Shown: positions 5,117 to 62,181 of the stretch, one piece after another
Position numbering within the stretch: the stretch's first letter is position 1
Layout: the number at the start of each line of letters is the position of its first letter
Source: an uncultured Acidobacteriota bacterium
GTDB lineage: Bacteria; Acidobacteriota; Vicinamibacteria; Vicinamibacterales; CAVVIG01
Length of the DNA stretch: 64,000 bases
Direction: 5' to 3'
NCBI GenBank assembly: GCA_963750035.1
Contig: CAVVPE010000003.1
Span: 308,600-372,599 of the forward strand
Translations under genes and position numbers: made by a program
Notes under the pieces: model-generated
What the model was told of the DNA's origin: nothing
What the model saw: only the letters and a program-made list of their open reading frames with translations
The model's database searches: none

Positions 5117-5149
5117 AAATTTACAATTGTAAATTTACAATTGTGAATT
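5117..5149. repeat. AT-rich palindromic tandem repeat between convergent pfkA and thrC
   Basis: aaatttacaattgt x2. 5117-5136 is a perfect 20-nt palindrome, AAATTTACAATTGTAAATTT. Confidence 0.85.
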
Positions 5150-6955: not shown

Positions 6956-6986
6956 CGAACTCTCCAACTCTCGAACTCTCCAACTC
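6956..6986. repeat. single-arm tandem word repeat (CGAACTCTCCAACTC x2) between pyrH and frr
   Basis: Same word family as the right arm of the 8657-8750 hairpin. I found no inverted partner nearby. Confidence 0.8.
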
Positions 6987-6987
6987 A

Positions 6988-7708
6988 TCACGCTGTCACC
7001 AGCGAACCGATCGGCTCGCCGGCGATCGCCCGCTTGATGTTCCCGGGCGTCCGCAGGTTGAAGACGACGATCGGCAGGCGATTGTCCATGCACAGGGAGA
7101 TGGCCGTCGCGTCCATCACCTTCAGGCCCTGCTCGAGCACCTGGAGGTAGGAGATGCGGTCGAACCGCGACGCCGTGGGATGAATCATCGGATCGGCGTC
7201 GTAGATGCCGTCGACCTTGGTGGCCTTCAGGATGACGTCGGCCTTGATTTCCATCGCGCGGAGCGCCGCGGCGGTGTCGGTGCTGAAGTACGGATTGCCG
7301 GTGCCGGCGCCGAAGACCACGACGCGGCCCTTCTCGAGGTGGCGGATCGCCCGGCGGCGGATGAACGGTTCGGCGACCGCGCGCATCTCGATCGCGGTCA
7401 CGACGCGGGTGACGACGTTCTGCTGCTCGAGGGCGTCCTGCAGCGCCAGCGCGTTGATGACCGTCGCCAGCATCCCCATGTAGTCGGCGGTCGCGCGGTC
7501 CATGCCGCGCGCGCTGGCCGCCACGCCGCGGAAGATGTTGCCGCCGCCGATGACGATCGCCGTCTCGACGCCCATGCTCTGGATCTCGGCGACGTCCTTG
7601 GCGATCTGCGTGGCCACGGCGGGATCGATGCCGTAGGTCTGCTCGCCCATGAGCGCTTCGCCGGAGAGCTTGAGGAGGATGCGTTTGTAGGCGGAGCGGC
7701 GGCGTCAC
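6988..7708 (-). CDS. pyrH: UMP kinase
   Basis: [13 protein letters not shown].., [33 protein letters not shown]. The ORF track starts at 7650, but similarity continues upstream to a GTG at 7708, with an indel in between. Confidence 0.9.
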
Positions 7709-8649: not shown

Positions 8650-8656
8650 GGTCGAC

Positions 8657-8750
8657 ATTGGAGAGTTGGTGAGTTGGAGAGTCGGTGAGTCTGAGCGGGA
8701 TGCTGGGGAGCTGGTCGAATTCACCAACTCTCCAACTCACCAACTCGCCA
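8657..8750. repeat. tandem-word hairpin (GTTGGAGA/GTTGGTGA) between rpsB and tsf
   Basis: Left arm 8657-8690 attggagagttggtgagttggagagtcggtgagt. Right arm 8718-8750 attcaccaactctccaactcaccaactcgccag. Confidence 0.85.
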
Positions 8751-8765
8751 GATTCGAGTCGGCGT

Positions 8766-20683: not shown

Positions 20684-20724
20684 CAGCAATCTGAAATCTG
20701 AAATCCTACAATCTGAAATTTCAG
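20684..20724. repeat. CTGAAAT heptamer tandem repeat ending in the palindrome CTGAAATTTCAG
   Basis: cagcaat ctgaaat ctgaaat cctacaat ctgaaat ttcag. AT-rich. Lies between accC and thiE. Confidence 0.8.
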
Positions 20725-30141: not shown

Positions 30142-30221
30142 TTGTAATTAGGAATTAGGGATTAGGAATTTGGAATTCGGACCCGCATTCCTAATTCCAA
30201 ATTCCAAATTCCTAATTACAA
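30142..30221. repeat. AT-rich tandem-word hairpin, GGAATTA/GGAATTT family
   Basis: Left arm ttgtaattaggaattagggattaggaatttggaat. Right arm ttcctaattccaaattccaaattcctaattacaa. Loop about 11 nt. Confidence 0.9.
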
Positions 30222-30228
30222 AAACTCA

Positions 30229-31137
30229 GTGATCACCCTCATCATCAACCCGATCTCCGGCAACGCGCACTGGGGCGAGATTGCCGACCGCGTGGATGTT
30301 GCCCGGACAGCGTTAGCTGGCAGCGGCGAAGAGTCGCGCGTCGTCGTCTCGGAACGGCGTGGACATGTGCGCGAGCTGGCCATGGCAGCCGCGCATTCCG
30401 GCTCGAGGCTGGTGATGGTCTGGGGTGGGGATGGCTCGATGAACGAGGCCGGGGCGGCGCTCCTCGGGACCGATGTGCCGCTGGGTGTGATTCCGGCCGG
30501 CTCGGGTAACGGTCTCGCCCGCGAGCTCGGCATTCCGATGCAGCCTGCCGCTGCAATCGCGGCGGCGTTGAAAGGCAGGCCGCGCGTGATCGACGGCGGA
30601 GAATTGGGCGGCCGCCCATTCTTCAATATCGCGGGCGTCGGCTTTGATGCTCACATCGCGGCATGCTTCGATCGCGCACCACGCCGTGGCCTGGCCACCT
30701 ACGTGCGGGTGTCAGCGCGGGAGCTGCTGACCTATCGATCGATGAACTATCGGATCGATTGCAGCGAGGCTGCCGGCGGCATTTCAGGCGATGCTCAAAG
30801 CGTCGCCCTTCCGCACCGCCGCGCCCTCCTCGTGACGATCGCCAACTCCCCGCAGTTCGGCAACGGCGCCCGAATCACACCGTTCGCGCGCGTTGACGAC
30901 GGGCGGCTCGACCTGGTCGTCTACGAGGAGGTCTCCCGCTTTTCGACAATCTGCGCGCTGCCGAAACTCTTTACCGGAGGCATCGAGCGGGTGCGTGGTT
31001 TCACGACACGGCAGATAGAGCGGGCACGGATCGAGAGCGATGTGCCGATGACCTTTCACGTCGACGGCGAACCGGTCGAGGGCGGCACGGCGCTCGAGGT
31101 CAGAGTCCTGCCTAAAGCCTTGAGGGTGATCGCGTAA
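30229..31137 (+). CDS. diacylglycerol/lipid kinase family protein (YegS-like)
   Basis: Intact 302 aa. VMVWGGDGSMNEA, LGVIPAGSGNGLAREL, and the DAGK catalytic domain pattern. Confidence 0.85.
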   Translation: MITLIINPISGNAHWGEIADRVDVARTALAGSGEESRVVVSERRGHVRELAMAAAHSGSRLVMVWGGDGSMNEAGAALLGTDVPLGVIPAGSGNGLARELGIPMQPAAAIAAALKGRPRVIDGGELGGRPFFNIAGVGFDAHIAACFDRAPRRGLATYVRVSARELLTYRSMNYRIDCSEAAGGISGDAQSVALPHRRALLVTIANSPQFGNGARITPFARVDDGRLDLVVYEEVSRFSTICALPKLFTGGIERVRGFTTRQIERARIESDVPMTFHVDGEPVEGGTALEVRVLPKALRVIA

Positions 31138-31222
31138 TTTGGAATTAGGAATTAGGAATTTGGAATGCGTGTTGGAATTGGCGCGCGAATTCCAAATTCC
31201 TCATTCCAAATTCCTAATTTCA
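31135..31222. repeat. AT-rich tandem-word hairpin, GGAATTA/GGAATTT family, between convergent genes
   Basis: Left arm taatttggaattaggaattaggaatttggaatg. Right arm cgaattccaaattcctcattccaaattcctaatttca. Confidence 0.9.
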
Positions 31223-31231
31223 TGATCTCTG

Positions 31232-41581: not shown

Positions 41582-41636
41582 GGAAACACGAAACACGAAA
41601 CCAGACAAGCAATTCTTTTCGTGGTTTCGTGCTTCC
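41582..41636. repeat. tandem-word hairpin (AACACGA words) between sucC and sucD
   Basis: ggaaacacgaaacacgaaacca ... tggtttcgtgcttcc. The perfect 10-bp core pairs 41594-41603 with 41622-41631. Confidence 0.85.
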
Positions 41637-41652
41637 GGCATGCTTTGACGAT

Positions 41653-42524
41653 ATGGCCGTCCTAATCGATAAGTCGACACGATTGCTGGTCCAGGGCCTG
41701 ACTGGACGGGAAGGCACGTTCCACGCGCGGCAGGCGGCGATCTACGGCACGACGGTCGTCGGCGGTGTCACGCCGGGCAAGGGCGGCACCACCCACGAAG
41801 GCTGGCCGATCTTCGACACGGTCCACGACGCGATCGAGAAGACCGGCGCCAACGCCTCGGTGATTTTCGTGCCGCCTCCCTTCGCGGCCGACGCGATCAT
41901 GGAGGCCGCCGATGCGGGACTGGCGCTCGTCGTGTGCATCACCGAGGGGATTCCCGGTACTCGACATGATGCGGGCGATGACCTTCCTCAAGGAGCATCC
42001 GCAGACGCGTCTCGTCGGACCGAACTGCCCCGGCATCATCACGGCCGGCCAGGCCAAGGCGGGCATCATCCCGGGACATATCTGCAAGGAAGGGCGGATC
42101 GGGATCGTGTCGAAGAGCGGCACGCTCACCTACGAGGCGATCCACCAGCTGACGCGCCTCGGCCTCGGCCAGACGACCTGCATCGGCATCGGCGGCGACC
42201 CGCTGATTGGCACGACCCACATCGACGCGCTCGCCCTGTTCGCGCAGGACCCCGACACCGACGCGGTGATCATGATTGGCGAAATCGGCGGCAGCGCCGA
42301 GGAAGAGGCCGCCGCCTGGATTCAGGGGCACTTCAAGAAGCCGGTCGTGGCCTTCATCGCCGGCCAGACCGCACCGCCAGGACGCCGCATGGGCCATGCC
42401 GGCGCGATCATCGCCGGCGGGAAGGGGACAGCCGCCGAGAAGATGCGTGCGCTGGACGGCCGCCGGCGTGAAGGTGGTCAGGAGTCCCGCCGATATGGGT
42501 GGTGCGGTCAGAGAACTGCTATAA
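41653..42524 (+). CDS. sucD: succinyl-CoA synthetase alpha subunit, apparent frameshifts (extra C in the run at 41953-41955, second near 42450)
   Basis: [62 protein letters not shown]. Confidence 0.92.
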
Positions 42525-42525
42525 T
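42517..42525 (+). promoter_or_regulatory. extended -10 like TGCTATAAT overlapping the sucD stop, 48 nt upstream of korA
   Basis: Same 9-mer as at 46334 and 58510. Confidence 0.3.
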
Positions 42526-42573
42526 TCCGGGGATCCACTCCTCCTTTCTCAATAGCCTGTAAGGACTTAACGA

Positions 42574-44464
42574 ATGTCACCGAGTGATCTAGCGGTTCAG
42601 GAGCAGAGGGCTGCGTCGGGCCAGCAGCGGGTCGTCAACGATTTCAGCATCCAGGTCGCCACCGTCAATGGCTCGGGCAGCCAGACGGCCAACCTCGTGC
42701 TCCTCCGTTCGATTCTCCTGATGGGCGTTCCCGTGTCCGGCAAGAACATGTTCCCTTCCAACATCGCCGGGCTGCCCACCTGGTACACGATTCGGGCCAG
42801 CAAGCGCGGCTACATCGCCCGGAAGAAGGAAGTCGACTTCCTCGTCGCGATGAACGCCGAGACGGCGAAGGAAGACGTGCTGACGCTGGATGCGGGCGCC
42901 GCCGTCGTCTACGACGAGCCGCTGAAGCTCAACACGCTCCGCAGCGACCTGGTGTTCTACCCGGTCCCGTTCGACAAGCTGGTCGCCCCGGTCTGTCCCG
43001 ACGCGAAGCTGCGGCGGCTCGTCCGCAACATGATCTACGACGGCATCCTCGCCAAGATCCTCGGCATCGACCTGAAGCTGATGGAACAGGCGCTCGGCAA
43101 GCAGCTGGGGCGCAAGGCCAAGGCTGTCACGCTCAACCAGGGCGCGCTCAAGGCCGGCTATGACTATGCGGAGGCGACCTTCACGAAGCAGGACCCATTC
43201 GTCATCGAGCCGATGAACGAAACGGCCGGCAAGATTCTCATCGAGGGAAATGCCGCGGCGGCGATCGGCTGCATGATGGCGGGCGTCACCGTCGTCGCCT
43301 GGTATCCGATCACGCCCTCGTCGTCGCTCTGCGAGTCGCTCATCGGCTACATGAAGCGATACCGGATGGACAAGGCGACCGGGAAGGCCACGTTCGCGAT
43401 CGTGCAGGCCGAGGACGAGATCGCGTCGCTCGGCATGGTGATCGGCGCGGGCTGGGCGGGCGCGCGCGCGATGACCGCGACGGCCGGGCCCGGGCATCTC
43501 GCTGATGTCCGAGTTCACCGGTCTCGCGTACTACGCGGAAACTCCCGCGGTCATCTTCGACGTCCAGCGGGTCGGCCCGTCGACCGGCCTCCCGACGCGG
43601 ACCGCGCAGGGCGACCTGCTGTTCACGGCCTTCCTGTCGCACGGCGACACGAAGCACGTCATGATCATTCCCTCGTCGGTCGAGGAATGCTACGAGATGG
43701 CGCAGCAGGCGTTCGAACTCACCGAGCTGCTCCAGACGCCGGTGTTCGTGATGATGGATCTCGACCTGGGGATGAACAACTGGATGTCCGACGGGTTCAA
43801 GTATCCCGAGAAGCCGATTAACCGCGGCAAGCTGCTCACCAAGGAGGTGCTGGCGCGGCTCGGCGAGTGGGGACGCTACAAGGACGTCGACGGCGACGGC
43901 ATTCCGTACCGCACGGTGCCGGGCGACGGCATGCCCGCCTACTTCACCAGGGGCTCGGGTCACAACGCGAAGGGACAGTACAGCGAGCGGCCCGACGACT
44001 ACGTCGAGAACATGGATCGCCTGTCGCGCAAGTTCGAAACCGCGCGCGCCTACGTGCCCAAGCCGGTCATCGACCAGACGGCCGGCGCGAAGATCGGGCT
44101 GATTGGCTATGGCACCTCGCACTGGGCGATCACGGAGAGCCGCGATCAGCTGCGCGAGGAGACCGACGTCAAGACGTCATACTTCCGGCTCCGCGCGTAT
44201 CCGTTCACCGAAGAGCTCGCCGCCTTCATCGACGCGCACGAGCGCGTCTACGTGGTCGAACAGAACCGCGACGCGCAGCTCCTGCAATTGATGCGCCTCG
44301 AGCTCAACCCCGAGCGTCTCACGAAGCTGCGCAGCGTCCTCCACTACAACGGCCTCCCGATCGACGCGCGGAGCATCACGGACGACGTGCTGGCGCAGGA
44401 AGGCTTCGAGGTGGCGAAGAAGACGGTGGCGAAGGTGAGTGCCGGATCAGCGGGCGGCGAATAA
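42574..44464 (+). CDS. korA: 2-oxoacid:ferredoxin oxidoreductase alpha subunit (gamma-alpha fusion type), one apparent frameshift near 43495
   Basis: FSIQVATVNGSGSQTANLVL (gamma-like), GNAAAAIGCMMAGVTVVAWYPITPSS, AEDEIASLGMVIGAGWAGARAMTATAGPG, VFDVQRVGPSTGLPT. Confidence 0.85.
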
Positions 44465-44468
44465 CGGC

Positions 44469-44505
44469 ACAATTTCAAATTGTAAATTTACAATCTGTAA
44501 ATTGA
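44469..44505. repeat. AT-rich palindromic word repeat between korA and korB (AAATTTA/CAATTGT family)
   Basis: acaatttcaaattgtaaatttacaatctgtaaattga. Palindromes are ACAATTTcAAATTGT and TTGTAAATTTACAA. Same family as 5117-5149. Confidence 0.85.
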
Positions 44506-44519
44506 TCTAACGACATCAA

Positions 44520-45548
44520 ATGGCCACACCAATCAAAGTCAATCGCATCGGGCTGGAACCACAGGTCTACAAGGGCGGCAAGACGACGCTGTGCGCGGGC
44601 TGCGGGCACAACGCCATCTCGGAGCGCATCATCGATGCGTTCTACGAGATGGGCGTCAATCCCAGCCAGGTCGTCAAGCTGTCGGGTATCGGCTGCTCGA
44701 GCAAGAGCCCGGCGTACTTCCTGGGCGGATCGCACGGCTTCAACGCCGTCCACGGCCGCATGCCCTCGGTCGGCACCGGGGCGATGCTGGCCAACGGCAA
44801 GCTGATTGCGATCGGCGTGAGCGGCGACGGCGACACGGGCGCGATCGGCATCGGCCAGTTCGTCCACCTGATGCGCCGCAACCTGCCGATCATTTACATC
44901 ATCGAGGACAACGGCTGCTACGGCCTGACGAAAGGGCAGTTCTCGCCGACGGCCGACCTCGGATCGAAGCTGAAGAGCGGCGTCGTCAACGAGCTGCCGC
45001 CGATCGACACCTGCGCCCTGGCGGTCGAGCTGGGCGCGACGTTCGTGGCGCGGTCGTTCTCGGGCGACAAGAAACAGCTGCTGGCGCTGCTCAAGGCGGC
45101 GCTCGCGCACCGCGGCACCGTGATGCTCGACGTCATCTCGCCGTGCGTCACGTTCAACGACCACGAAGGATCGACCAAGAGCTACGCGTACGCGAAGGAC
45201 CACGACGACCCGCTCGAGGAGGTCAGCTTCGTACCGTTCTTCGAGGAGATCTCGGTGGATTACGAGCCTGGCTCGACGCAGGAAGTGACGATGCACGACG
45301 GCTCGAAGCTGTATCTGAAGAAGCTGGAGGAAGGCTACGATCCGACCGACAAGATCTCGGCGCTGAAGCGCCTGCACGAGACCGCGCGCCGCGGCGAGTT
45401 CGCCACGGGCCTGATCTACATCGAGCCCGATCGCGACGACTTCCTCACGCAGCTGAACATTGTCGACGAACCGCTGGCCAGCCTGCCGCTCGAGCGAACG
45501 CGGCCAGGGCGAGAGGCGCTCGAGGAGATCATGGAGAGCCTGCGATAA
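44520..45548 (+). CDS. korB: 2-oxoacid:ferredoxin oxidoreductase beta subunit (TPP-binding)
   Basis: Intact 342 aa. CAGCGHNAI, SGIGCSSK, GVSGDGDTGAIG, DNGCYGLTKGQ. Confidence 0.9.
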   Translation: MATPIKVNRIGLEPQVYKGGKTTLCAGCGHNAISERIIDAFYEMGVNPSQVVKLSGIGCSSKSPAYFLGGSHGFNAVHGRMPSVGTGAMLANGKLIAIGVSGDGDTGAIGIGQFVHLMRRNLPIIYIIEDNGCYGLTKGQFSPTADLGSKLKSGVVNELPPIDTCALAVELGATFVARSFSGDKKQLLALLKAALAHRGTVMLDVISPCVTFNDHEGSTKSYAYAKDHDDPLEEVSFVPFFEEISVDYEPGSTQEVTMHDGSKLYLKKLEEGYDPTDKISALKRLHETARRGEFATGLIYIEPDRDDFLTQLNIVDEPLASLPLERTRPGREALEEIMESLR

Positions 45549-45583
45549 CTTGCAGATTGCATATTGCAGATTGCGGATTTACG
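45549..45583. repeat. left arm of a split inverted repeat (TTGCAGA/TTGCATA heptamer words)
   Basis: cttgcagattgcatattgcagattgcggattt. The reverse-complement partner is at 46007-46040. Confidence 0.75.
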
Positions 45584-45631
45584 AAGCGTTTCTCTCGAGT
45601 TCGACACCGACCCTGGCGATTCTGGGCGTCT

Positions 45632-45962
45632 TCACGAGGCGGTCAGAATCGCCAGCAGTTCTCTTGACTCGCCGAGCAGGTAGTCCAGCTCGCTCCCGCA
45701 TAGCCGCCGCGACGGATAAACACCAACCAGAAGACGGTTTCGTCGGATTCCTCGTGCGCAGTTGCAAGCTTTGCCGTGAAGTCTCGGTGTGATTGCCCCC
45801 GGCAGGCGCGGCGGTAATTCGAAGCCATGCCCGTCTACTTCGAAACAGTTGGTCTGCGACGTGTTGGGATTGGCGATCGGCTGCAAGGCCGCGCAGAACT
45901 TCGCACGTGCGGAGGGCGAAGGTGAGGGTGCGTTCCTGCAGGTCCTCAGCCCGCGGATTCAT
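45632..45962 (-). CDS. four-helix-bundle protein (23S rRNA intervening-sequence protein family), frameshifted
   Basis: Pieces in three frames: AEDLQERTLTFALRTCEVLRGL..VADQLFRS / ..NYRRACRGQSHRDFTAKLATAHEESDETVFWLVF / ..ELDYLLGESRELLAILTAS*. They match the family pattern DQLLRSxTSIGANyrEA..arS..dF..Kl.i...E..ET.yWL. Confidence 0.7.
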
Positions 45963-46006
45963 GGCGTGAGTTCGAGCATGACTCACGCCAGTGCAAATTC
46001 CTCAGT

Positions 46007-46040
46007 AAATCAGCAATTTGCAATCTGCAGTTTCCAATTC
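46007..46040. repeat. right arm of the split inverted repeat flanking the four-helix-bundle gene
   Basis: aaatcagcaatttgcaatctgcagtttccaattc. Its reverse complement ..ctgcagattgcaaattgctgattt aligns with 45550-45581. Confidence 0.7.
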
Positions 46041-46077
46041 TCAGCCCCGCATCTCGCGCGGACGCGGCAGATTCTGC

Positions 46078-46272
46078 CTACCCCCCTTCGCTTTCATCCT
46101 CATTTGCACCGATCTGGTCCTCTGCGGTCGCGATCGGATCGTCCGGCAGCCCATCCTCGTTGACGCCCGGACCGTGGGGGTTGCCCATCTGCTTGTCGGT
46201 GGGACGGTCGCCCTCGATGGCGCCCTTCTGTGCGTCCTGATCGTCCTGCTGCTTCGTCGCCATCGTCGTCAC
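46078..46272 (-). CDS. hypothetical small acidic protein
   Basis: Intact 64-aa ORF, MTTMATKQQDDQDAQKGAIEGDRPTDKQMGNPHGPGVNEDGLPDDPIATAEDQIGANEDESEGG. No family assignment. Confidence 0.35.
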   Translation of the reverse strand: MTTMATKQQDDQDAQKGAIEGDRPTDKQMGNPHGPGVNEDGLPDDPIATAEDQIGANEDESEGG

Positions 46273-46333
46273 GTTGCGCCTCCAGTGAAGGTGCTTGGCG
46301 TCGTTCCCGCCGCGCAGTGGTTGAGTTAGCCGC

Positions 46334-46342
46334 TGCTATAAT
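46334..46342 (+). promoter_or_regulatory. TGCTATAAT extended -10 element 6 nt upstream of the ndk ATG (leaderless-type arrangement)
   Basis: gcTGcTATAATcgctcgATG. There is no room for a Shine-Dalgarno sequence. Confidence 0.4.
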
Positions 46343-46348
46343 CGCTCG

Positions 46349-46767
46349 ATGACCGAGCGGACCCTCGCGATTATCAAACCCGATGCCGTCCAGCGACGGC
46401 TGGCGGGGCGGATCATTCAACGCATCGAAGAAGAAGGATTCCAGATCCGTGCCATGCGGCGCGTGCACCTCTCCAAGCCGGAAGCCGAGGGTTTCTACGC
46501 GGTCCATCGGCAGCGCCCGTTTTTCGGCAGCCTGACCGGGTTCATGTCGTCGGGGCCCGCGGTCGTGATGGTGCTGGAGGCTCCCGACGCGATCAAGAAG
46601 TGGCGGACCCTGATGGGGGCCACGGATCCTGCGAAGGCGGATGCCGGCACGCTGCGGAAGGAATTTGCCGAATCGATCGAACGCAACGCGACGCACGGCT
46701 CCGATGCTGCCAGAGACGGCGGCGTACGAGATTGGCTATTTCTTCGCCGGGCGTCGAACTGATCTGA
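46349..46767 (+). CDS. ndk: nucleoside diphosphate kinase, apparent frameshifts near the 3' end
   Basis: [44 protein letters not shown] (active-site His), then [14 protein letters not shown] in a second frame. Confidence 0.9.
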
Positions 46768-46768
46768 C

Positions 46769-46811
46769 GAGGACGCAGAGGGGAGCAGAGCGCCGCAAAG
46801 CCGCAGAGGAG
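46769..46811. repeat. single-arm GCAGAGG-family word repeat between ndk and the DUF2905 gene
   Basis: gaggacgcagaggggagcagagcgccgcaaagccgcagaggag. Related to 34853-34915. Confidence 0.7.
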
Positions 46812-46816
46812 CCACT

Positions 46817-47011
46817 TTGGGTAAGCTGCTGCTGATCGTCGGCCTCGTCATCAGCGGGATCGGCCTGCTCGTCATGCTCGGCGTGCCATTCGGCCGGCTC
46901 CCCGGAGACTTCGCGGTCAAGCGCGGCAACTTCGCCTTCTACTTTCCGCTCACCACGTCGATCATTTTGAGTATTCTGCTGACGCTGATCTTCGCGCTTT
47001 TCAGACGCTAA
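46817..47011 (+). CDS. DUF2905-family small membrane protein
   Basis: Intact 64 aa. [34 protein letters not shown] is the family signature as I recall it. Confidence 0.7.
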
Positions 47012-47024
47012 GACGCCTGACGCA

Positions 47025-47118
47025 GGTCGTTCGACGTTCGCGCGTTCGGCGTTCGAACGGCGGCCGTGCAGCCGACGAACGCCGAACGATCGGCGAAGAT
47101 CCACGAACGACGAACGAC
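47025..47118. repeat. tandem-word hairpin (CGNCGTT words) between the DUF2905 gene and dcd
   Basis: Left arm ggtcgttcgacgttcgcgcgttcggcgttcg. Right arm cgacgaacgccgaacg...ccacgaacgacgaacgac. Confidence 0.85.
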
Positions 47119-47136
47119 ACTGACGGAGACCCGACC

Positions 47137-47691
47137 GTGACGATTAAGAATGACCGCTGGATCAAGCGAATGGCCCTCGAGCACCAGATGATCGAACCGT
47201 TTGTCGACAGCCAGACCCGCACCGGGGTCGTGTCGTACGGGGTCTCGTCGTACGGCTACGACATCCGCGTCGCCGACGACTTCAAGGTCTTCACCAACGT
47301 CTACAACACCGTCGTGGATCCGAAGTGCTTCGACCCGAAGTCGTTCGTCGACATCAAGGCCGACGTCTGCATCATCCCCCCGAACTCCTTTGCGCTGGCC
47401 CGGACCATCGAGTACTTCCGGATTCCGCGCGACGTCCTGACCGTCTGCCTCGGCAAGTCGACGTATGCGCGCTGCGGCATCATCGTCAACGTCACCCCGT
47501 TCGAGCCCGAGTGGGAAGGCCACGTCACCATCGAGATCTCGAACACGACGCCGCTGCCGGCGAAGATTTACGCCAACGAAGGGATCGCGCAGGTTCTGTT
47601 CTTCCAGAGCGACGAGCCGTGTGAGGTGTCTTACCGCGACAAGAAGGGCAAATATCAGGCGCAGCGCGGCGTGACGCTGCCGAAAATTTAG
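47137..47691 (+). CDS. dcd: dCTP deaminase
   Basis: Intact 184 aa. [49 protein letters not shown]. Confidence 0.93.
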
Positions 47692-47783
47692 TGCGAAGTT
47701 CGGATTTGACCCCTAAAGCTCAGACGTAGTAAAACTTGCGGCGGCTTCGGGTAATCCGGCGCCCTTCCAGAATCCCTGGGTAC

Positions 47784-48734
47784 ATGGACAAACTCGTCGA
47801 GCGCGAAAACGCGCCTCGGAATCCACTCGCCGCCGCGCCCGCTCTCGCCGTTCAATTCTTTTTGATCCCGCTGGTTGTTGTCGGCGTGACAGTGCTCGTC
47901 TACGTGGGCTTCAGGTCCATGCTCGCGGACGAGCGCAGCCCGGCAGAGTATCTCGCCGAGGTGCGGTACGGTGGCTGGAGCCGCCAGTGGCCTGCGGCGT
48001 TCGAGCTGTCGCGCTTGATGGAAGACCCGCAGGTGCGGGCCGACCGCTCGCTGGTCCCGGCGCTCGTCAAGGCGTTCGACGAGGCCAAAGACGGCGACCC
48101 GCGGATCCGGCGTTATCTCGCCCTCGCCATCGGGCGGCTCGAACCGCCTCTCCCCAGGGAGGCCATCGACGTCCTGACCAAGGCCCTCGACGAACCAGGC
48201 ACGGCGTGGACGCCCGACATCGTCTCGCGCCTCAACGGGTGGGCCGACATCGACATCAACGAAGCCAGGATCATGACGATCTGGGCGCTGGGTTCGTCGG
48301 GCGACGCCTCCGTCGTGGCCAAGCTCGTGCCGTTGTACGAGTCGAAGGACGCGGGCATCCGGAAGATGGTCGTGTACGCGCTTGGCGCTCTGCCCGGGGA
48401 GGCGCAGCTGCCGACGCTGACGACCGCGCTCAAGGACGAAGCCGCCGACGTGCGATGGAATGCCGCTGTTGCGCTGGCACGACACGACAGCGCGGAGGGC
48501 GTCCCCGTGCTGCGCGAGATGCTCGATCGCGCGTTCGTCGAGCAGACGGTCAAGCGGGATGTGCGGCAGTACGAGGATCAGGACCCCGTGGCGGACGTCA
48601 TGATCAGCGGCCTCCGCGCCGCTGCCGCCCTCAACGACCCGACGCTCAAGGCATCGGTCGAAGGATTGAGCCAGCAGGACCGCAGCCTGCGCGTGCGGCA
48701 GGCCGCGCTCCAAGCGCTCAAGACGATGGGATAG
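47784..48734 (+). CDS. HEAT-repeat membrane-anchored protein
   Basis: N-terminal TM segment FFLIPLVVVGVTVLVYVGF. Repeats include DPRIRRYLALAIGRL, DAGIRKMVVYALGAL, DVRWNAAVALARHDSAEGVPVLREML, SLRVRQAALQAL. Confidence 0.65.
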   Translation: MDKLVERENAPRNPLAAAPALAVQFFLIPLVVVGVTVLVYVGFRSMLADERSPAEYLAEVRYGGWSRQWPAAFELSRLMEDPQVRADRSLVPALVKAFDEAKDGDPRIRRYLALAIGRLEPPLPREAIDVLTKALDEPGTAWTPDIVSRLNGWADIDINEARIMTIWALGSSGDASVVAKLVPLYESKDAGIRKMVVYALGALPGEAQLPTLTTALKDEAADVRWNAAVALARHDSAEGVPVLREMLDRAFVEQTVKRDVRQYEDQDPVADVMISGLRAAAALNDPTLKASVEGLSQQDRSLRVRQAALQALKTMG

Positions 48735-48745
48735 GAGAAAGGTAT

Positions 48746-48903
48746 CGTTCACGCTTCTCGGTTCACACTTCTCGGTTCGTGTTCAAGTTCGGGTTCGTGA
48801 CGGAGTGCGTTGCATCGGGAACGGTGAACATTGAAACTGAACCATGAATGTCGAACCGAACCTGAACACGAACGGAGCACCGAGAACCGAGAAGGGTGAA
48901 CTG
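48746..48903. repeat. large tandem-word hairpin (about 50-nt arms, 14-nt words GTTCACNCTTCTCG) upstream of the Rieske gene
   Basis: Left arm cgttcacgcttctcggttcacacttctcggttcgtgttcaagttcgggttcg. Right arm cgaaccgaacctgaacacgaacggagcaccgagaaccgagaagggtgaactg. Confidence 0.9.
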
Positions 48904-48916
48904 CAGGTGACAGAGC

Positions 48917-49752
48917 ATGGCTGACGAGAAGACGCCGGAAACCCCGGCGCCCAAGATTGCGCCTCAAACCGGCGAGGCAACGGCAGCGGCGGCAAAGACC
49001 GGCTCGCCGGCGGCGGGGCCAACGGCCAGCGCACCGGCTACCGGAGCAAACCCGGCGGCGACCCCGCATGCCGCGACGACGCCTGCCGCACGGCCCGCAC
49101 CGGCGCCCCGTGCGCCAGCCGCACCGCTTCCCGATCTCGCGGGGAAGACGACGACGCCCGCTTCAGCAGGCGGAGCGGCGGCTAAGGCGGCCACGACGGC
49201 CGCCAAGCCGGCCGCGGCCGCAGCCACGCGGGATCCAGACGATACCTCGCCGCTCCTGACGCGTCGCGCCTGGATGGGCGTCGCCTGGGGCGCGTTTTCG
49301 GCGGCTTCCGCCGCCGCGCTGGCGGCAACCGGCCGCTTCATGTTCCCGAACGTCCTGAACGAGCCGCCGCAGCAGTTCAAGGCAGGGTTACCCGTCCGAG
49401 TACGGGATGGGCGTGGACGAGCGGTGGAAGGAGAAGTTCGGCGTCTGGATCGTTCGAACGCCGAACGATGTCGTGCAGCGCTCGAACGGGTTCTTCGCGC
49501 TGCTCGTGACCTGCACCCACCTGGGCTGCACGCCCGAACTACCTGAGCGCCGAAGGGAAGTTCAAGTGCCCGTGCCACGGCAGCGGCTTCCGGGCGGAGA
49601 GCGGCATCAACTTCGAGGGTCCGGCGCCGCGGCCGCTCGAGCGCGCCCGCATCGTGCTGGCCGACGACGGCCAGCTCCTGATCGACAAGGCGCGCAAGTT
49701 CCAATACGAGCTGGGGCAGTGGGCAGACCCCGAGGCATTTCTGAAGATTTGA
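48917..49752 (+). CDS. Rieske 2Fe-2S subunit of a cytochrome bc-type complex, apparent frameshifts, start uncertain
   Basis: Tat-like LLTRRAWMGVAWGAF. CTHLGC and CPCHGS cluster-binding boxes. The first ~115 aa are Ala/Pro-rich low complexity. Confidence 0.8.
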
Positions 49753-49775
49753 GATTTGAGGATCTTGAGATCCTA
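49747..49775. repeat. ATTTGAG word repeat with a short palindrome between the Rieske and cytochrome b genes
   Basis: atttgag atttgag gatcttgagatcct. Confidence 0.6.
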
Positions 49776-49797
49776 GCAAATTTTTCACAAGAGAGCC

Positions 49798-50614
49798 ATG
49801 GCTGAGACCAAGACGATCAATCCGCAGGAGAGTGCGCCCCGTCCGGTTCTGGAACTGGCTGACCGAGACGCAGATCTGGACCTCGGTCTTCCGGCACGGG
49901 CGGCCGAACAGCGACCGCAACCGCGTGCTGGTGATGCTGTCGAACGTGTTCCTGCACCTGCACCCGGTGCGCATCCGCAAGTCGGGCGTGAAGCTTCGCT
50001 ACACCTGGTGCATGGGCGGGCTGAGCTTCTTCCTGTTCCTGTCGCTCACGTTCACCGGCCTGCTCCTGATGTTCTATTACCGGCCGACGCTCGAGTACGC
50101 CTACACCGACATCGTGGCGCTGCGCGAGCACGTCCCGCTGGGCATCATGCGCGAGATGCACCGCTGGGGCGCCCACGCGATGGTCATCACCGTGTGGCTG
50201 CACATGTTCCGGGTGTTCATGACCGGCTCCTACAAGCCGCCGCGCGAGTTCAACTGGTCGGTCGGCGTGATCATGCTGGTGCTGACGCTGCTGCTGTCCT
50301 TCACCGGCTATCTGCTGCCATGGGACCAGTTGGCTATCTGGGCCATCACGGTCGGCTCCAACATGGCGCGCGCCACGCCGTTCCTCGGGCACGAAGGCCC
50401 GGGCGCCGCGCTGCTGCGGCTCGGCGACGTGCCGCTGATTCACGCCTACGACGACGCGCGGTTTGCCCTGCTGGGCGGATCGTTCGTCGGCGAGGGCGCG
50501 CTGCTGCGATTCTACGTGCTGCACTGCGTGGGCCTGCCGCTCGGCATCGCCGTGCTGATGGCCGTCCACTTCTGGCGCGTCCGGAAGGACGGGGGGATTT
50601 CCGGGCCACTGTAA
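49798..50614 (+). CDS. cytochrome b, N-terminal (b6-like) subunit, possible frameshift near the start
   Basis: [57 protein letters not shown]. The four haem-ligand His are in two helices. Confidence 0.85.
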
Positions 50615-50702
50615 TTTGGAATTTGGAATGAGGAATGCGTAGGAATGCGCACGGTGAATTTGGTTACGAATTCCAAATTCCAAATTCCAAATTCCTAATT
50701 AC
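50611..50702. repeat. AT-rich tandem-word hairpin, GGAATTT family, between the two cytochrome b halves
   Basis: Left arm gtaatttggaatttggaatgaggaatgcgtaggaatg. Right arm cgaattccaaattccaaattccaaattcctaattac. Confidence 0.9.
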
Positions 50703-50716
50703 GAGGATCAGCTGAG

Positions 50717-51794
50717 ATGGGCGTGATCAAGGGTTTCTTCAATACGCTGGCCGACCCGCGGCTGTTTTTCCTTCTGGCCTGCGCCGCGCTGGTCCTGATG
50801 GTCTGGAAGCGCGACAAGATCGCGTCGAACACGGTCGGGTACGGGCTGCTCGGCCTCCTGGGCGTGTTCTTCCTCTTCGGCGCTTTCGATCCGAATTTCC
50901 GGCTGATCATCGCGAAGCCCGACAACGTGCCGATCGTCGGGCTGATCTTCCTGCTGATCTTCTTCACCTGGTACTCGATCCGCGAGGCGGTGCTGAACGA
51001 TCGGCGGATCGTGGCCGGTCAGGGGCCGATCGAGAAAGCCGAGTCGGATCGCGTCTGGGTGTGGCCCGATCTCGTCTATACCGAGCTCATCTCACTGATT
51101 CTGTGCTCGGTGGTGCTGATCGTCTGGTCGATCGTCCTGAAGGCGCCGCTCGAGCAGCCCGCGAACCGCGTCGGTCACCCCGAATCCGTCGAAGGCGCCG
51201 TGGTACTTCCTCGGGCTGCAGGAAATGCTGGTGTACTTCGACCCGTGGCTCGCCGGCGTCGTGCTGCCCGGCTTGATCATCGTCGGCCTGATCGCCATCC
51301 CGTACATCGATCGCAACCCGAAGGGCAACGGCTACTACACCTTCACCGAGCGCAAGGCAGAGATCACGCTCTTCCTCTTCGGCTTCGTCATCCTGTGGTC
51401 GTCGCTCATCGTCCTGGGCACGTTCCTTCGCGGGCCGAACTGGAACTTCTTCGGGCCGTTCGAGTTCTGGGATCTCCACAAGCTCGAGGCGCTGGTCAAC
51501 GTGAACCTGTCGGAGTACATCTGGATGCGGCTCTTCCAGACCGGGCTGCCCGGCAACTGGTTCGTGCGGGAGATCTTCGGCATTCTGCTCGTGCTCGCCT
51601 ACGTGTTCGTGCTGCCGGTCGTCCTCGGCCGCACGGTATTCCGCTCCTACTACGAGAAGATGGGCGGCCCGCGGTTCTACATCGGCGCGTTCCTGTTCCT
51701 GATGATGATGTCGCTGCCGATCAAGATGCTGCTCCGGTGGATTGTCAACCTGAAGTACATCGTGGCGATTCCTGAATTCTTCTTCAACATCTAA
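50717..51794 (+). CDS. cytochrome b C-terminal (subunit IV-like) subunit with extra TM helices, one apparent frameshift near 51170
   Basis: ..PSKAPWYFLGLQEMLVYFDPWLAGVVLPGLIIVGLIAIPYIDRNP in a second frame. The remainder is polytopic. Confidence 0.8.
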
Positions 51795-51797
51795 GTC

Positions 51798-54650: not shown

Positions 54651-54710
54651 GCAGGGCAGGTAGGGCAGGAAGGGCAGGTAGGGCCTCCCGCCTTACCTGC
54701 CCTACCCGCC
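54651..54710. repeat. tandem-word hairpin (GGGCAGGNA words) after the cytochrome c gene
   Basis: gcagggcaggtagggcaggaagggcaggtaggg ... cttacctgccctacccgcc. Confidence 0.85.
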
Positions 54711-54713
54711 CGG

Positions 54714-62147: not shown

Positions 62148-62151
<4 letters not shown>

Positions 62152-62181
62152 TTTGGAATTTGGAATCAAGAATTAGGAATG
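62148..62181. repeat. single-arm GGAATTT-family word repeat running into the recO start codon
   Basis: gtaatttggaatttggaatcaagaattaggaATG. No inverted partner. Confidence 0.8.

Follow-up and report, generated by a model that had tools for sequence, protein, structure and literature searches.

A four-helix-bundle gene between inverted heptamer arrays in an acidobacterial korB/ndk spacer: a probable intervening-sequence-type cassette outside rRNA

Introduction

Why does a single small gene of the four-helix-bundle (4HB) family lie between the two separated arms of an inverted repeat built from heptamer words, and do gene and arms form one unit? The locus that raises this question lies in a 64,000-nt stretch of DNA from an uncultured Acidobacteriota bacterium; the whole analyzed stretch is called the window throughout. 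The 4HB family (TIGR02436/PF05635) is very widespread and often multi-copy, and its members have repeatedly been reported as "associated" with cas and defense operons. Avd of diversity-generating retroelements falls in the same Pfam family, and outside Avd we know of no function for these proteins. Over-represented heptamer repeats, of which the STRR repeats of cyanobacteria are an example, pose a puzzle of their own.

The 23S rRNA intervening sequence of Coxiella burnetii (helix 45) has a stem of 28-bp terminal inverted repeats whose loop contains a decaying S23p ORF, with tandem heptamers beside the start of that ORF; RNase III cuts have been mapped inside the stem (PMC4990558). Over-represented intergenic heptamers have been described as GGGAATC in Xanthomonas and GGGGA(C/T)T in Nostoc (PMC4692102) and as TAACTGA in Beggiatoaceae (PMC4679880). 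Xanthomonas campestris has 186 GGGAATC arrays and 70 convergent inverted pairs able to form stem-loops (PMC4692102). Both reports describe these intergenic repeats without a function, and the passages searched connect none of the repeats with 4HB genes. Our literature search, which was incomplete and leaves an earlier description possible, found no report in which 4HB genes outside rRNA were connected with heptamer arrays on their flanks.

Results

Two inverted heptamer arrays bracket the locus

The left arm (45550-45582) begins 1 nt past the korB stop codon and carries 4.3 copies of the word TTGCAGA, reading TTGCAGA, TTGCATA, TTGCAGA, TTGCGGA and TTT; its inner end includes the stop codon of the 4HB gene (TAA, 45579-45581). 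The right arm (46005-46037) is the reverse-complement array, with 3.1 copies of AATCNGC words. Both arrays have a period of 7, and in the sense of the 4HB gene, which is encoded on the minus strand, the left arm is the 3' arm and the right arm the 5' arm. A sequence-only reading of the window had described the arms as separated reverse complements about 430 nt apart, and this was borne out: each arm measures 33 nt, 27 of the 33 positions pair (82% complementary) across a spacing of 422 nt, and another register pairs 22 nt at 91%. Whether a low-complexity word could give such complementarity by chance was assessed with a 16-nt core, GCAGATTGCANATTGC, which has 6 matches with at most 3 mismatches in 64 kb compared to 1.44 expected, a count reached in 0 of 100 shuffles. 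Five of the six matches are the two arms, on opposite strands, and the arms are the only two strong arrays of the TTGCAGA word in the window.

The helix formed by the arms closes both the minimum free energy (MFE) and the centroid folds on either strand. The right arm can also fold as a small local hairpin (11 nt). The spacing of 422 nt is exceptional in the window, where the other word hairpins have loops of 2 to 63 nt; these had been described earlier as 10 to 55 nt, so that the claim of short loops stood and its range needed widening. The arms are AT-rich and without a T-run in a window of 66% GC.

The gene between the arms belongs to the 4HB family and is broken in frame

The single small gene between the arms (45579-45962, minus strand) had been assigned to the 4HB family from its letters, and profile searches confirmed this: the protein, rebuilt with three single-base corrections on which both scores rest, matches TIGR02436 at 60.2 bits (curated cut-off 24; E=2e-16) and PF05635 at 40.6 bits (curated cut-off 33.8). 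The two frame changes previously claimed for the gene fall one short. Three 1-nt deletions break the frame, near 45834/45835, 45699-45701 and 45635/45636, and the corrections fall after the residues QLFRS, GGYAG and ILTAS; because the three deletions sum to -3, the frame 45579-45986 nevertheless stays open. Intact orthologues encode 132 aa (P0004) and 131 aa (P0006). The AlphaFold model of P0004 has four helices (pLDDT 95.6), and its best Foldseek matches are 2RLD, 2GSC and the Avd structures 4DWL/8UB7. Searches by tblastn and HMM of the window and 83 loci returned further 4HB genes only as korB-site copies.

We considered that the frame breaks could stem from the assembly. Compared to the proteins of a related locus (L001), breaks also occur in korA, sucD, ndk, the Rieske protein and a cytochrome b subunit, as single-base insertions in G/C runs near 43495 (korA), near 41950 and 42440 (sucD), near 46700 (ndk), at 49386-49571 (Rieske) and near 51160 (cytochrome b C-terminal subunit), a span of 41653-51795. 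Given that essential genes are frameshifted, the assembly is error-prone and frameshifts in the window are by themselves no proof of pseudogenes; those of the 4HB gene may be non-biological. The type of break differs, however, with 1-nt deletions in the 4HB gene versus 1-nt insertions in G/C runs in the essential genes (Fisher P=0.006), and three breaks in 384 nt exceed the local break rate (P=0.003). Real decay of the window copy is plausible, at near even odds.

The leader, the neighboring genes and the likely source of transcription

On the minus strand, a hairpin of 10 perfect pairs (45962-45971 with 45981-45990; GGCGTGAGT.../...ACTCACGCC) spans 45962-45990 and appears in the MFE and centroid folds. 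An earlier description had placed a 9-bp hairpin over the first ATG (45963-45989); the hairpin exists, but it has 10 bp and its 3' arm ends directly at the AUG (ATG, 45960-45962). Orthologues have a differently sequenced hairpin at the same place, and the feature is confined to the korB-site group: among single-sequence folds, a part of the korB-site copies and none of the other subgroups showed it, and it was absent from the RNAalifold consensus of the MAFFT-aligned 5' leaders. At the inner edge of the 5' arm lies the tetramer GAGG (46000-46003, minus strand), which reads as a Shine-Dalgarno (SD)-like site and would come to about 9 nt from the AUG with the start hairpin folded. The orthologues keep GAGG, AGGG or GGAG at this position.

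To the left, korB (44520-45548, plus strand) encodes the beta subunit of a 2-oxoacid:ferredoxin oxidoreductase (NCBIfam PorB_KorB, E=1e-61), and the window KorB is 93% identical to that of L001. To the right, a small acidic ORF of 64 aa (46078-46272, minus strand) lies upstream of the 4HB gene on the same strand, divergent from ndk (46349-46762, plus strand; NCBIfam nucleoside-diphosphate kinase, E=1e-50), whose window copy is frameshifted near its 3' end. The ORFs around the locus are korAB, ndk, DUF2905 and dcd. The small acidic ORF has no Pfam match but recurs in 17 Vicinamibacteria loci, with or without a 4HB gene, at 43 to 75% identity and 61 to 64 aa, with the pattern MxTKQxDDQD...GAIEGDRPTD...GNPHG; in L003, a called 61-aa gene occupies its position. 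Where this ORF is present, ndk has its own TATAAT-type promoter and does not abut korB.

A scan of 45300-46500 gave neither promoter-like nor terminator-like sites, the interval 44300-46500 had no Rfam match, and a PADLOC search returned nothing. An intrinsic (rho-independent) terminator was rejected as an identity for the arms, which lack a T-run and lie in the interval free of terminator-like sites. Across the 4HB loci described below, the upstream neighbor is co-oriented in 55 of 65, at a median gap of 67 nt. Given these co-oriented neighbors and the lack of a local promoter-like or terminator-like site, the small acidic ORF is, judging by gene order, the likely source of read-through transcription of the 4HB gene. 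It is not the only source throughout the group, since L094 and L010 have the 4HB gene and lack the small ORF.

The cassette is a long-term but variable resident of the korB/ndk spacer

A KorB scan returned 80 Acidobacteriota loci and placed the window in Vicinamibacteria/Vicinamibacterales. About 15 related Vicinamibacteria loci have the 4HB gene in the korB/ndk spacer with both arms and in the same orientation; within this set, 4HB identity is only 41 to 85% while KorB identity exceeds 88%. The genes of four homologues (P0004, P0006, P0091 and P0012, down to 47% identity) are intact, encoded between korB and ndk, antisense to korB and flanked by both ATTGCNN-word arms, and the left arm is conserved in L001, L003, L084, L094, L014, L096 and L098.

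The same spacer takes several other forms, among them the empty sites that the sequence-only reading had suggested looking for. In some loci korB and ndk are adjacent, 3 to 57 nt apart. In others the small acidic ORF stands alone, with no hairpin in L008 and L012 and a short GC stem in L019, or together with a short-loop word hairpin whose word differs each time (TAGGGCAGG in L004, AACTAGA in L006, AATCCCT in L022 and CTTCGAA in L023). The short-loop hairpin of L016 has the word ATTGCTGA, close to that of the cassette. The 4HB gene sits between split arms in the window, L001 to L003, L014, L084, L094, L096 and L098, and between split arms of other words in L103 and L105 (GATCGAC) and in L010 (GGGCAAA/TTTCAAA), whose protein is only 41% identical. 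In L036, a C-terminal 4HB fragment (E=3e-6) remains between AATCGCG/CGCGATT arms; a relaxed HMM search of the other korB-ndk spacers found remnants in no further locus.

In L103/L105, L010 and L036, the word is switched on both arms together. A permutation comparison of own-arm with foreign-arm complementarity was significant owing to such word-switched loci (L103) alone. Within the ATTGCNN group, an arm pairs with the arms of other loci as well as it does with its own partner, so the sequence itself is conserved and not only the pairing. The arms act like a component of the cassette, not like some generic hairpin struck by an insertion.

On the KorB tree, these spacer states are interleaved within a clade of at least 88% identity, which makes the cassette a presence/absence polymorphism. 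From the distribution of these states, one Vicinamibacteria clade has had the cassette in this spacer for a long time, and elsewhere it is absent or a remnant (L036). The original proposal was that a hairpin loop had received, or retains, a gene-sized insert. The nesting of the gene within the arms was upheld, but the direct record holds gene loss alone (L036); an ancestral hairpin may have received the gene or a cassette may have collapsed to a hairpin, and of the two only collapse was directly seen.

An invertible segment, in which the inverted repeats would flip the gene as an on/off switch, is what a single gene between inverted repeats could bring to mind. We consider it scarcely credible here, given that the 4HB gene is antisense to korB in all orthologous loci examined and that no recombinase gene lies nearby.

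Two observations from the same spacers are recorded here. The arms are identical in 9 of the 10 metagenome contigs with P0091, and no polymorphism in arm copy number was seen; the remaining contig (L092, 1091-1190) has a shortened 3' arm followed by non-korB sequence, possibly through rearrangement or chimeric assembly at the array. In L037 (5014-5650), split arms, (GGTTCGA)x5 and TCGAACC-type words, surround a different cargo in the korB-ndk spacer, a secreted protein with a TonB_C domain (PF03544, E=6e-18); similar genes lie there in L031 and L042.

Inverted word arrays are usual in this branch of the 4HB family

The sequence-only reading had also suggested asking whether inverted arms accompany other 4HB genes. 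An alignment of 54 4HB sequences, used to scan metagenomes, returned 80 loci at 41 to 62% identity, with no rRNA location or Rfam match among them. The arm score compared the 200 nt upstream of a gene with the reverse complement of the 200 nt that follow it and took the best match without gaps; it was computed for the 71 loci with enough flank, with a threshold of 14. The median score was 20, compared to 9 for a direct-orientation control and 8.5 for a cross-locus control. Inverted arrays of 7- to 8-nt words on both flanks (score of at least 14) were present in 49 of the 71 diverse loci (69%), versus 4 of 105 neighboring ORFs of the same loci (4%; P=1.6e-21) and 1 of 494 ORFs in the korB loci (0.2%; P=4e-52), the sole positive among the latter being the L010 4HB gene itself. 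Seventy-six 4HB loci represent 40 unrelated genomic sites, and arms occur at 30 of the 40. From these comparisons, the inverted-arm layout is usual for this branch of the family, even outside rRNA.

These results bear on whether the arms could be unrelated low-complexity arrays or half-terminators, the first a part of korB and the second of the small ORF, with a complementarity due to chance. The abundance of word hairpins in the window and the small local hairpin of the right arm would suit such a coincidence. It is refuted by the array counts (only two strong arrays of the word in 64 kb, and these inverted), by the retention of both arms with the gene in about 15 loci and by the family-wide enrichment over controls; U-tract terminators are also absent. 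We regard a chance origin as extremely improbable.

The arms have a period of 7 in 29 loci and 8 in 19 loci, with a median of 4.6 copies per arm, and their GC content is 35% versus a median of 55% for the loci. A GATT/ATTG core is kept in 38 of the 49 loci while the other word positions vary. GATT-type words stand in the 5' arm in 45 of the 49 and the reverse arrangement in none; because an inverted repeat reads alike on both strands, this bias reflects the handedness of the hairpin and not gene polarity. Twelve loci at nine sites share the word ATTGAnTC, and their proteins are more similar to each other (68% within the group, 52% between groups). Related proteins at different sites with shared words indicate that the arms are part of the cassette. 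A wobble test found no G.U bias in arm mismatches (46 G.U-compatible, 55 A.C) and therefore no detectable selection for RNA pairing on either strand. The need for a stem does not by itself explain AT-rich arms with a conserved core, which points to recognition by some factor. The 4HB proteins are basic: 91% have a pI above 8, and the median is 9.5. One-sided loci also exist, with an array on the upstream side only, a class on which the tandem-array detector is too strict to inform.

The same design occurs on plasmids

Plasmid 4HB copies in cyanobacteria, Chloroflexota and one spirochete (Gloeocapsa, two Nostoc strains, Planktothrix, Chlorohelix and Treponema) have the same design. In Gloeocapsa PCC 7428 the gene reads (ATTTTAG)2...ATG at one end and TAA(TCTAAAA)2 at the other, between a DUF1156 gene and a Swt1-HEPN gene; the Nostoc punctiforme copy on pNPUN02 has (CAATTCG)4 and (CGAATTG)4; and the Planktothrix copy sits between DISARM drmD and BREX pglX. 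The Nostoc C057, Chlorohelix and Treponema copies are inverted in design too. It was not clearly seen in Pseudanabaena (direct repeats only) or in Bernardetia (weak match). Separately, in L175 to L179 (plasmids of Chlorohelix, Gloeocapsa, Pseudanabaena and Planktothrix), the 4HB genes are co-oriented among defense genes: between DUF1156 and Swt1-HEPN, between DISARM drmD and BREX pglX, and upstream of cas1. 4HB genes have likewise been noted inside cas loci (PMC3936711). This placement fits a guest cassette rather than a component of the defense system.

Discussion

An intervening-sequence-type cassette outside rRNA

We conclude, with a probability of roughly 0.6, that the locus is an intervening-sequence-type 4HB cassette outside rRNA that works as follows. 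The cassette would consist, in order, of the 5' arm, the SD-like GAGG, the small start hairpin, the 4HB ORF, its stop codon and the 3' arm, and it would have no promoter of its own; transcription that runs on from the small acidic ORF would supply its minus-strand RNA. In the transcript, the arms are predicted by folding to pair as an imperfect stem of about 33 bp that closes a 422-nt loop with the ORF. By analogy with the rRNA intervening sequences of Coxiella, Leptospira and Salmonella, a double-strand-specific RNase (RNase III) would cut this stem, which would free the 4HB RNA and give both products ends capped by a duplex. Since an inverted repeat reads alike on both strands, the same stem is available to korAB transcripts, which it could cap from its position 1 nt past the korB stop codon. 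Given that the Coxiella intervening sequence shares this design, we infer a role for the stem in processing and insulation.

The likeness to 23S rRNA intervening sequences, to which the sequence-only reading had pointed, was sustained by the inverted-arm stem and by an ORF of the same S23p family in its loop. With the intervening sequences of Coxiella and Leptospira the locus has in common the loop gene family, the inverted-repeat stem, heptamers at the ORF start and a decay-prone ORF. The Coxiella stem, at 28 bp, is as long as four heptamers, and the arms in the window, at 33 nt, as long as 4.3. They differ in location, the window cassette lying outside rRNA in the korB/ndk spacer and the intervening sequences in a 23S rRNA helix (9, 25 or 45), and in their words (TTGCAGA in the window, GACAGAT in Coxiella); RNase III cleavage is an experimental finding for Coxiella, whereas it is only inferred for the window locus.

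The arms also share the traits of the intergenic heptamer repeats, tandem 7-nt words near gene 3' ends and inverted pairs: the window arrays have a period of 7, lie 1 nt past the korB stop codon and have an inverted partner. What sets them apart is that they stand 422 nt apart with a gene between them. By these comparisons, free-standing 4HB copies keep the stem-plus-loop-ORF design of rRNA intervening sequences, with a stem made of heptamer words, and the two puzzles of intervening-sequence proteins and over-represented heptamer repeats become linked. The reported associations with cas and defense genes may then reflect a read-through-dependent guest cassette inside operons.

Some other known systems were compared. 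Avd (4DWL, 8UB7) has the fold and the basic four-helix bundle in common with the window protein, but a diversity-generating retroelement was rejected, with no reverse transcriptase (RVT) or template/variable repeat within 6 kb in L001 and L003. REP/BIME-type extragenic palindromes and MITEs are likewise imperfect palindromes at gene 3' ends and inside operons; unlike these, the arms here are internally tandem-repetitive, their words differ by locus and the loop holds a protein gene. No RAYT or transposase partner was seen, and of the traits of MITEs and insertion sequences the locus has the inverted ends, with no second copy of the cassette found within the window.

Could the arms instead mobilize the gene or bind its product?

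The arms could be the terminal inverted repeats of a DNA-level mobile unit, with the RNA stem a by-product. Such a unit would spread through an enzyme acting in trans, or by recombination of its arms with both arms of a gene-less hairpin that shares the word, after which the gene would lie in the loop of the target. The 76 4HB loci at 40 unrelated sites, the closer similarity of proteins in the ATTGAnTC group across its 9 sites, and the presence/absence polymorphism at korB/ndk among close relatives all suit this explanation, as does the related word of the short-loop hairpin at the same site in L016. It would also account for 4HB genes as co-oriented guests in defense and cas operons (PMC3936711), and the Coxiella intervening sequence has been called a selfish element (PMC4990558). 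However, the called genes of L001 and L003 include no transposase or recombinase nearby, and inspection of the window's arm ends by eye gives no sign of a target-site duplication. The gene has been held at one site while diverging to 41 to 47% identity, the arms are constant in 9 of the 10 P0091 contigs, and no gain event was caught, the documented change being the loss in L036. We therefore hold a mobile unit to be possible rather than probable.

The conserved core and base composition of the arms bear on a second alternative, in which a protein would bind the arrays, the simplest candidate being the 4HB protein itself, which is basic and pentameric. The gene would then be bracketed by its own operators, on DNA or RNA, and the stem would be of secondary importance; 4HB paralogues would also act on the gene-less word hairpins in other parts of the genome. 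Describing the locus as a cassette is compatible with this alternative. It draws on the GATT/ATTG core, on AT-rich arms in GC-rich genomes, on the one-way placement of GATT-type words in the 5' arm, on a median of 4.6 words per arm, on the basic character of the proteins and on the loci with an upstream-side array only. The X. campestris S23p protein Xcc0516 and Avd form homopentameric rings (PMC4990558), 2RLD has five chains, and Avd is seen in an RNA-protein complex (8UB7). In the X. campestris supplement, repeat #15 (622956-622983) is a four-unit GGGAATC array 6 nt from XCC0517 (listed as bccP) that overlaps the start of XCC0516, listed only as "conserved" (PMC4692102). XCC0516 is the crystallized 4HB protein of the pentamer structure 2GSC.

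Against protein binding, about 12 hairpins in the window have at least 6 different words but there is only one 4HB gene, the N. punctiforme and Planktothrix copies have the opposite handedness, and shared descent of gene and arms would likewise give a correlation of words with proteins. We find operators of this kind doubtful, yet a protein-array interaction is a serious rival or complement to the stem, as is spread at the DNA level by way of the arms. A broader version strikes us as less likely again: 4HB proteins would be the missing partners of heptamer arrays and word hairpins in many phyla, each basic pentamer reading an array of about five words, on RNA or DNA, with its own gene nested between two such arrays. 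Gene-less hairpins would in that case be targets or collapsed cassettes, and rRNA intervening sequences would be cassettes that landed in rRNA.

Other word hairpins in the window

The cassette shares the window with gene-less word hairpins. Further heptamer arrays, mostly hairpins and of at least 6 different words, lie at 5117-5149, 20688-20719, 41583-41634, 44477-44504, 48747-48901, 49745-49771, 50611-50702, 54653-54711 and 62150-62180. Several stand inside operons (korA-korB; between the cytochrome b genes) and are therefore not simple terminators. The array at 54653 shares its word, AGGGCAGGT, with the korB hairpin of L004. Two complete hairpins of the word family AATTAGG/AATTTGG (30142-30222 and 31128-31227) surround one gene of the YegS/diacylglycerol-kinase type (30229-31137; PF00781, PF19279), which thus lies between two full hairpins and not inside one. 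A lone 8-mer array of AACTCTCC words (6959-6983) is 92% complementary to one arm of a complete hairpin (8652-8757) 1.67 kb away, with a gene of the amino-acid-kinase family (pyrH-like, 6988-7650) and at least one more gene between them; this pair may be a second split arrangement.
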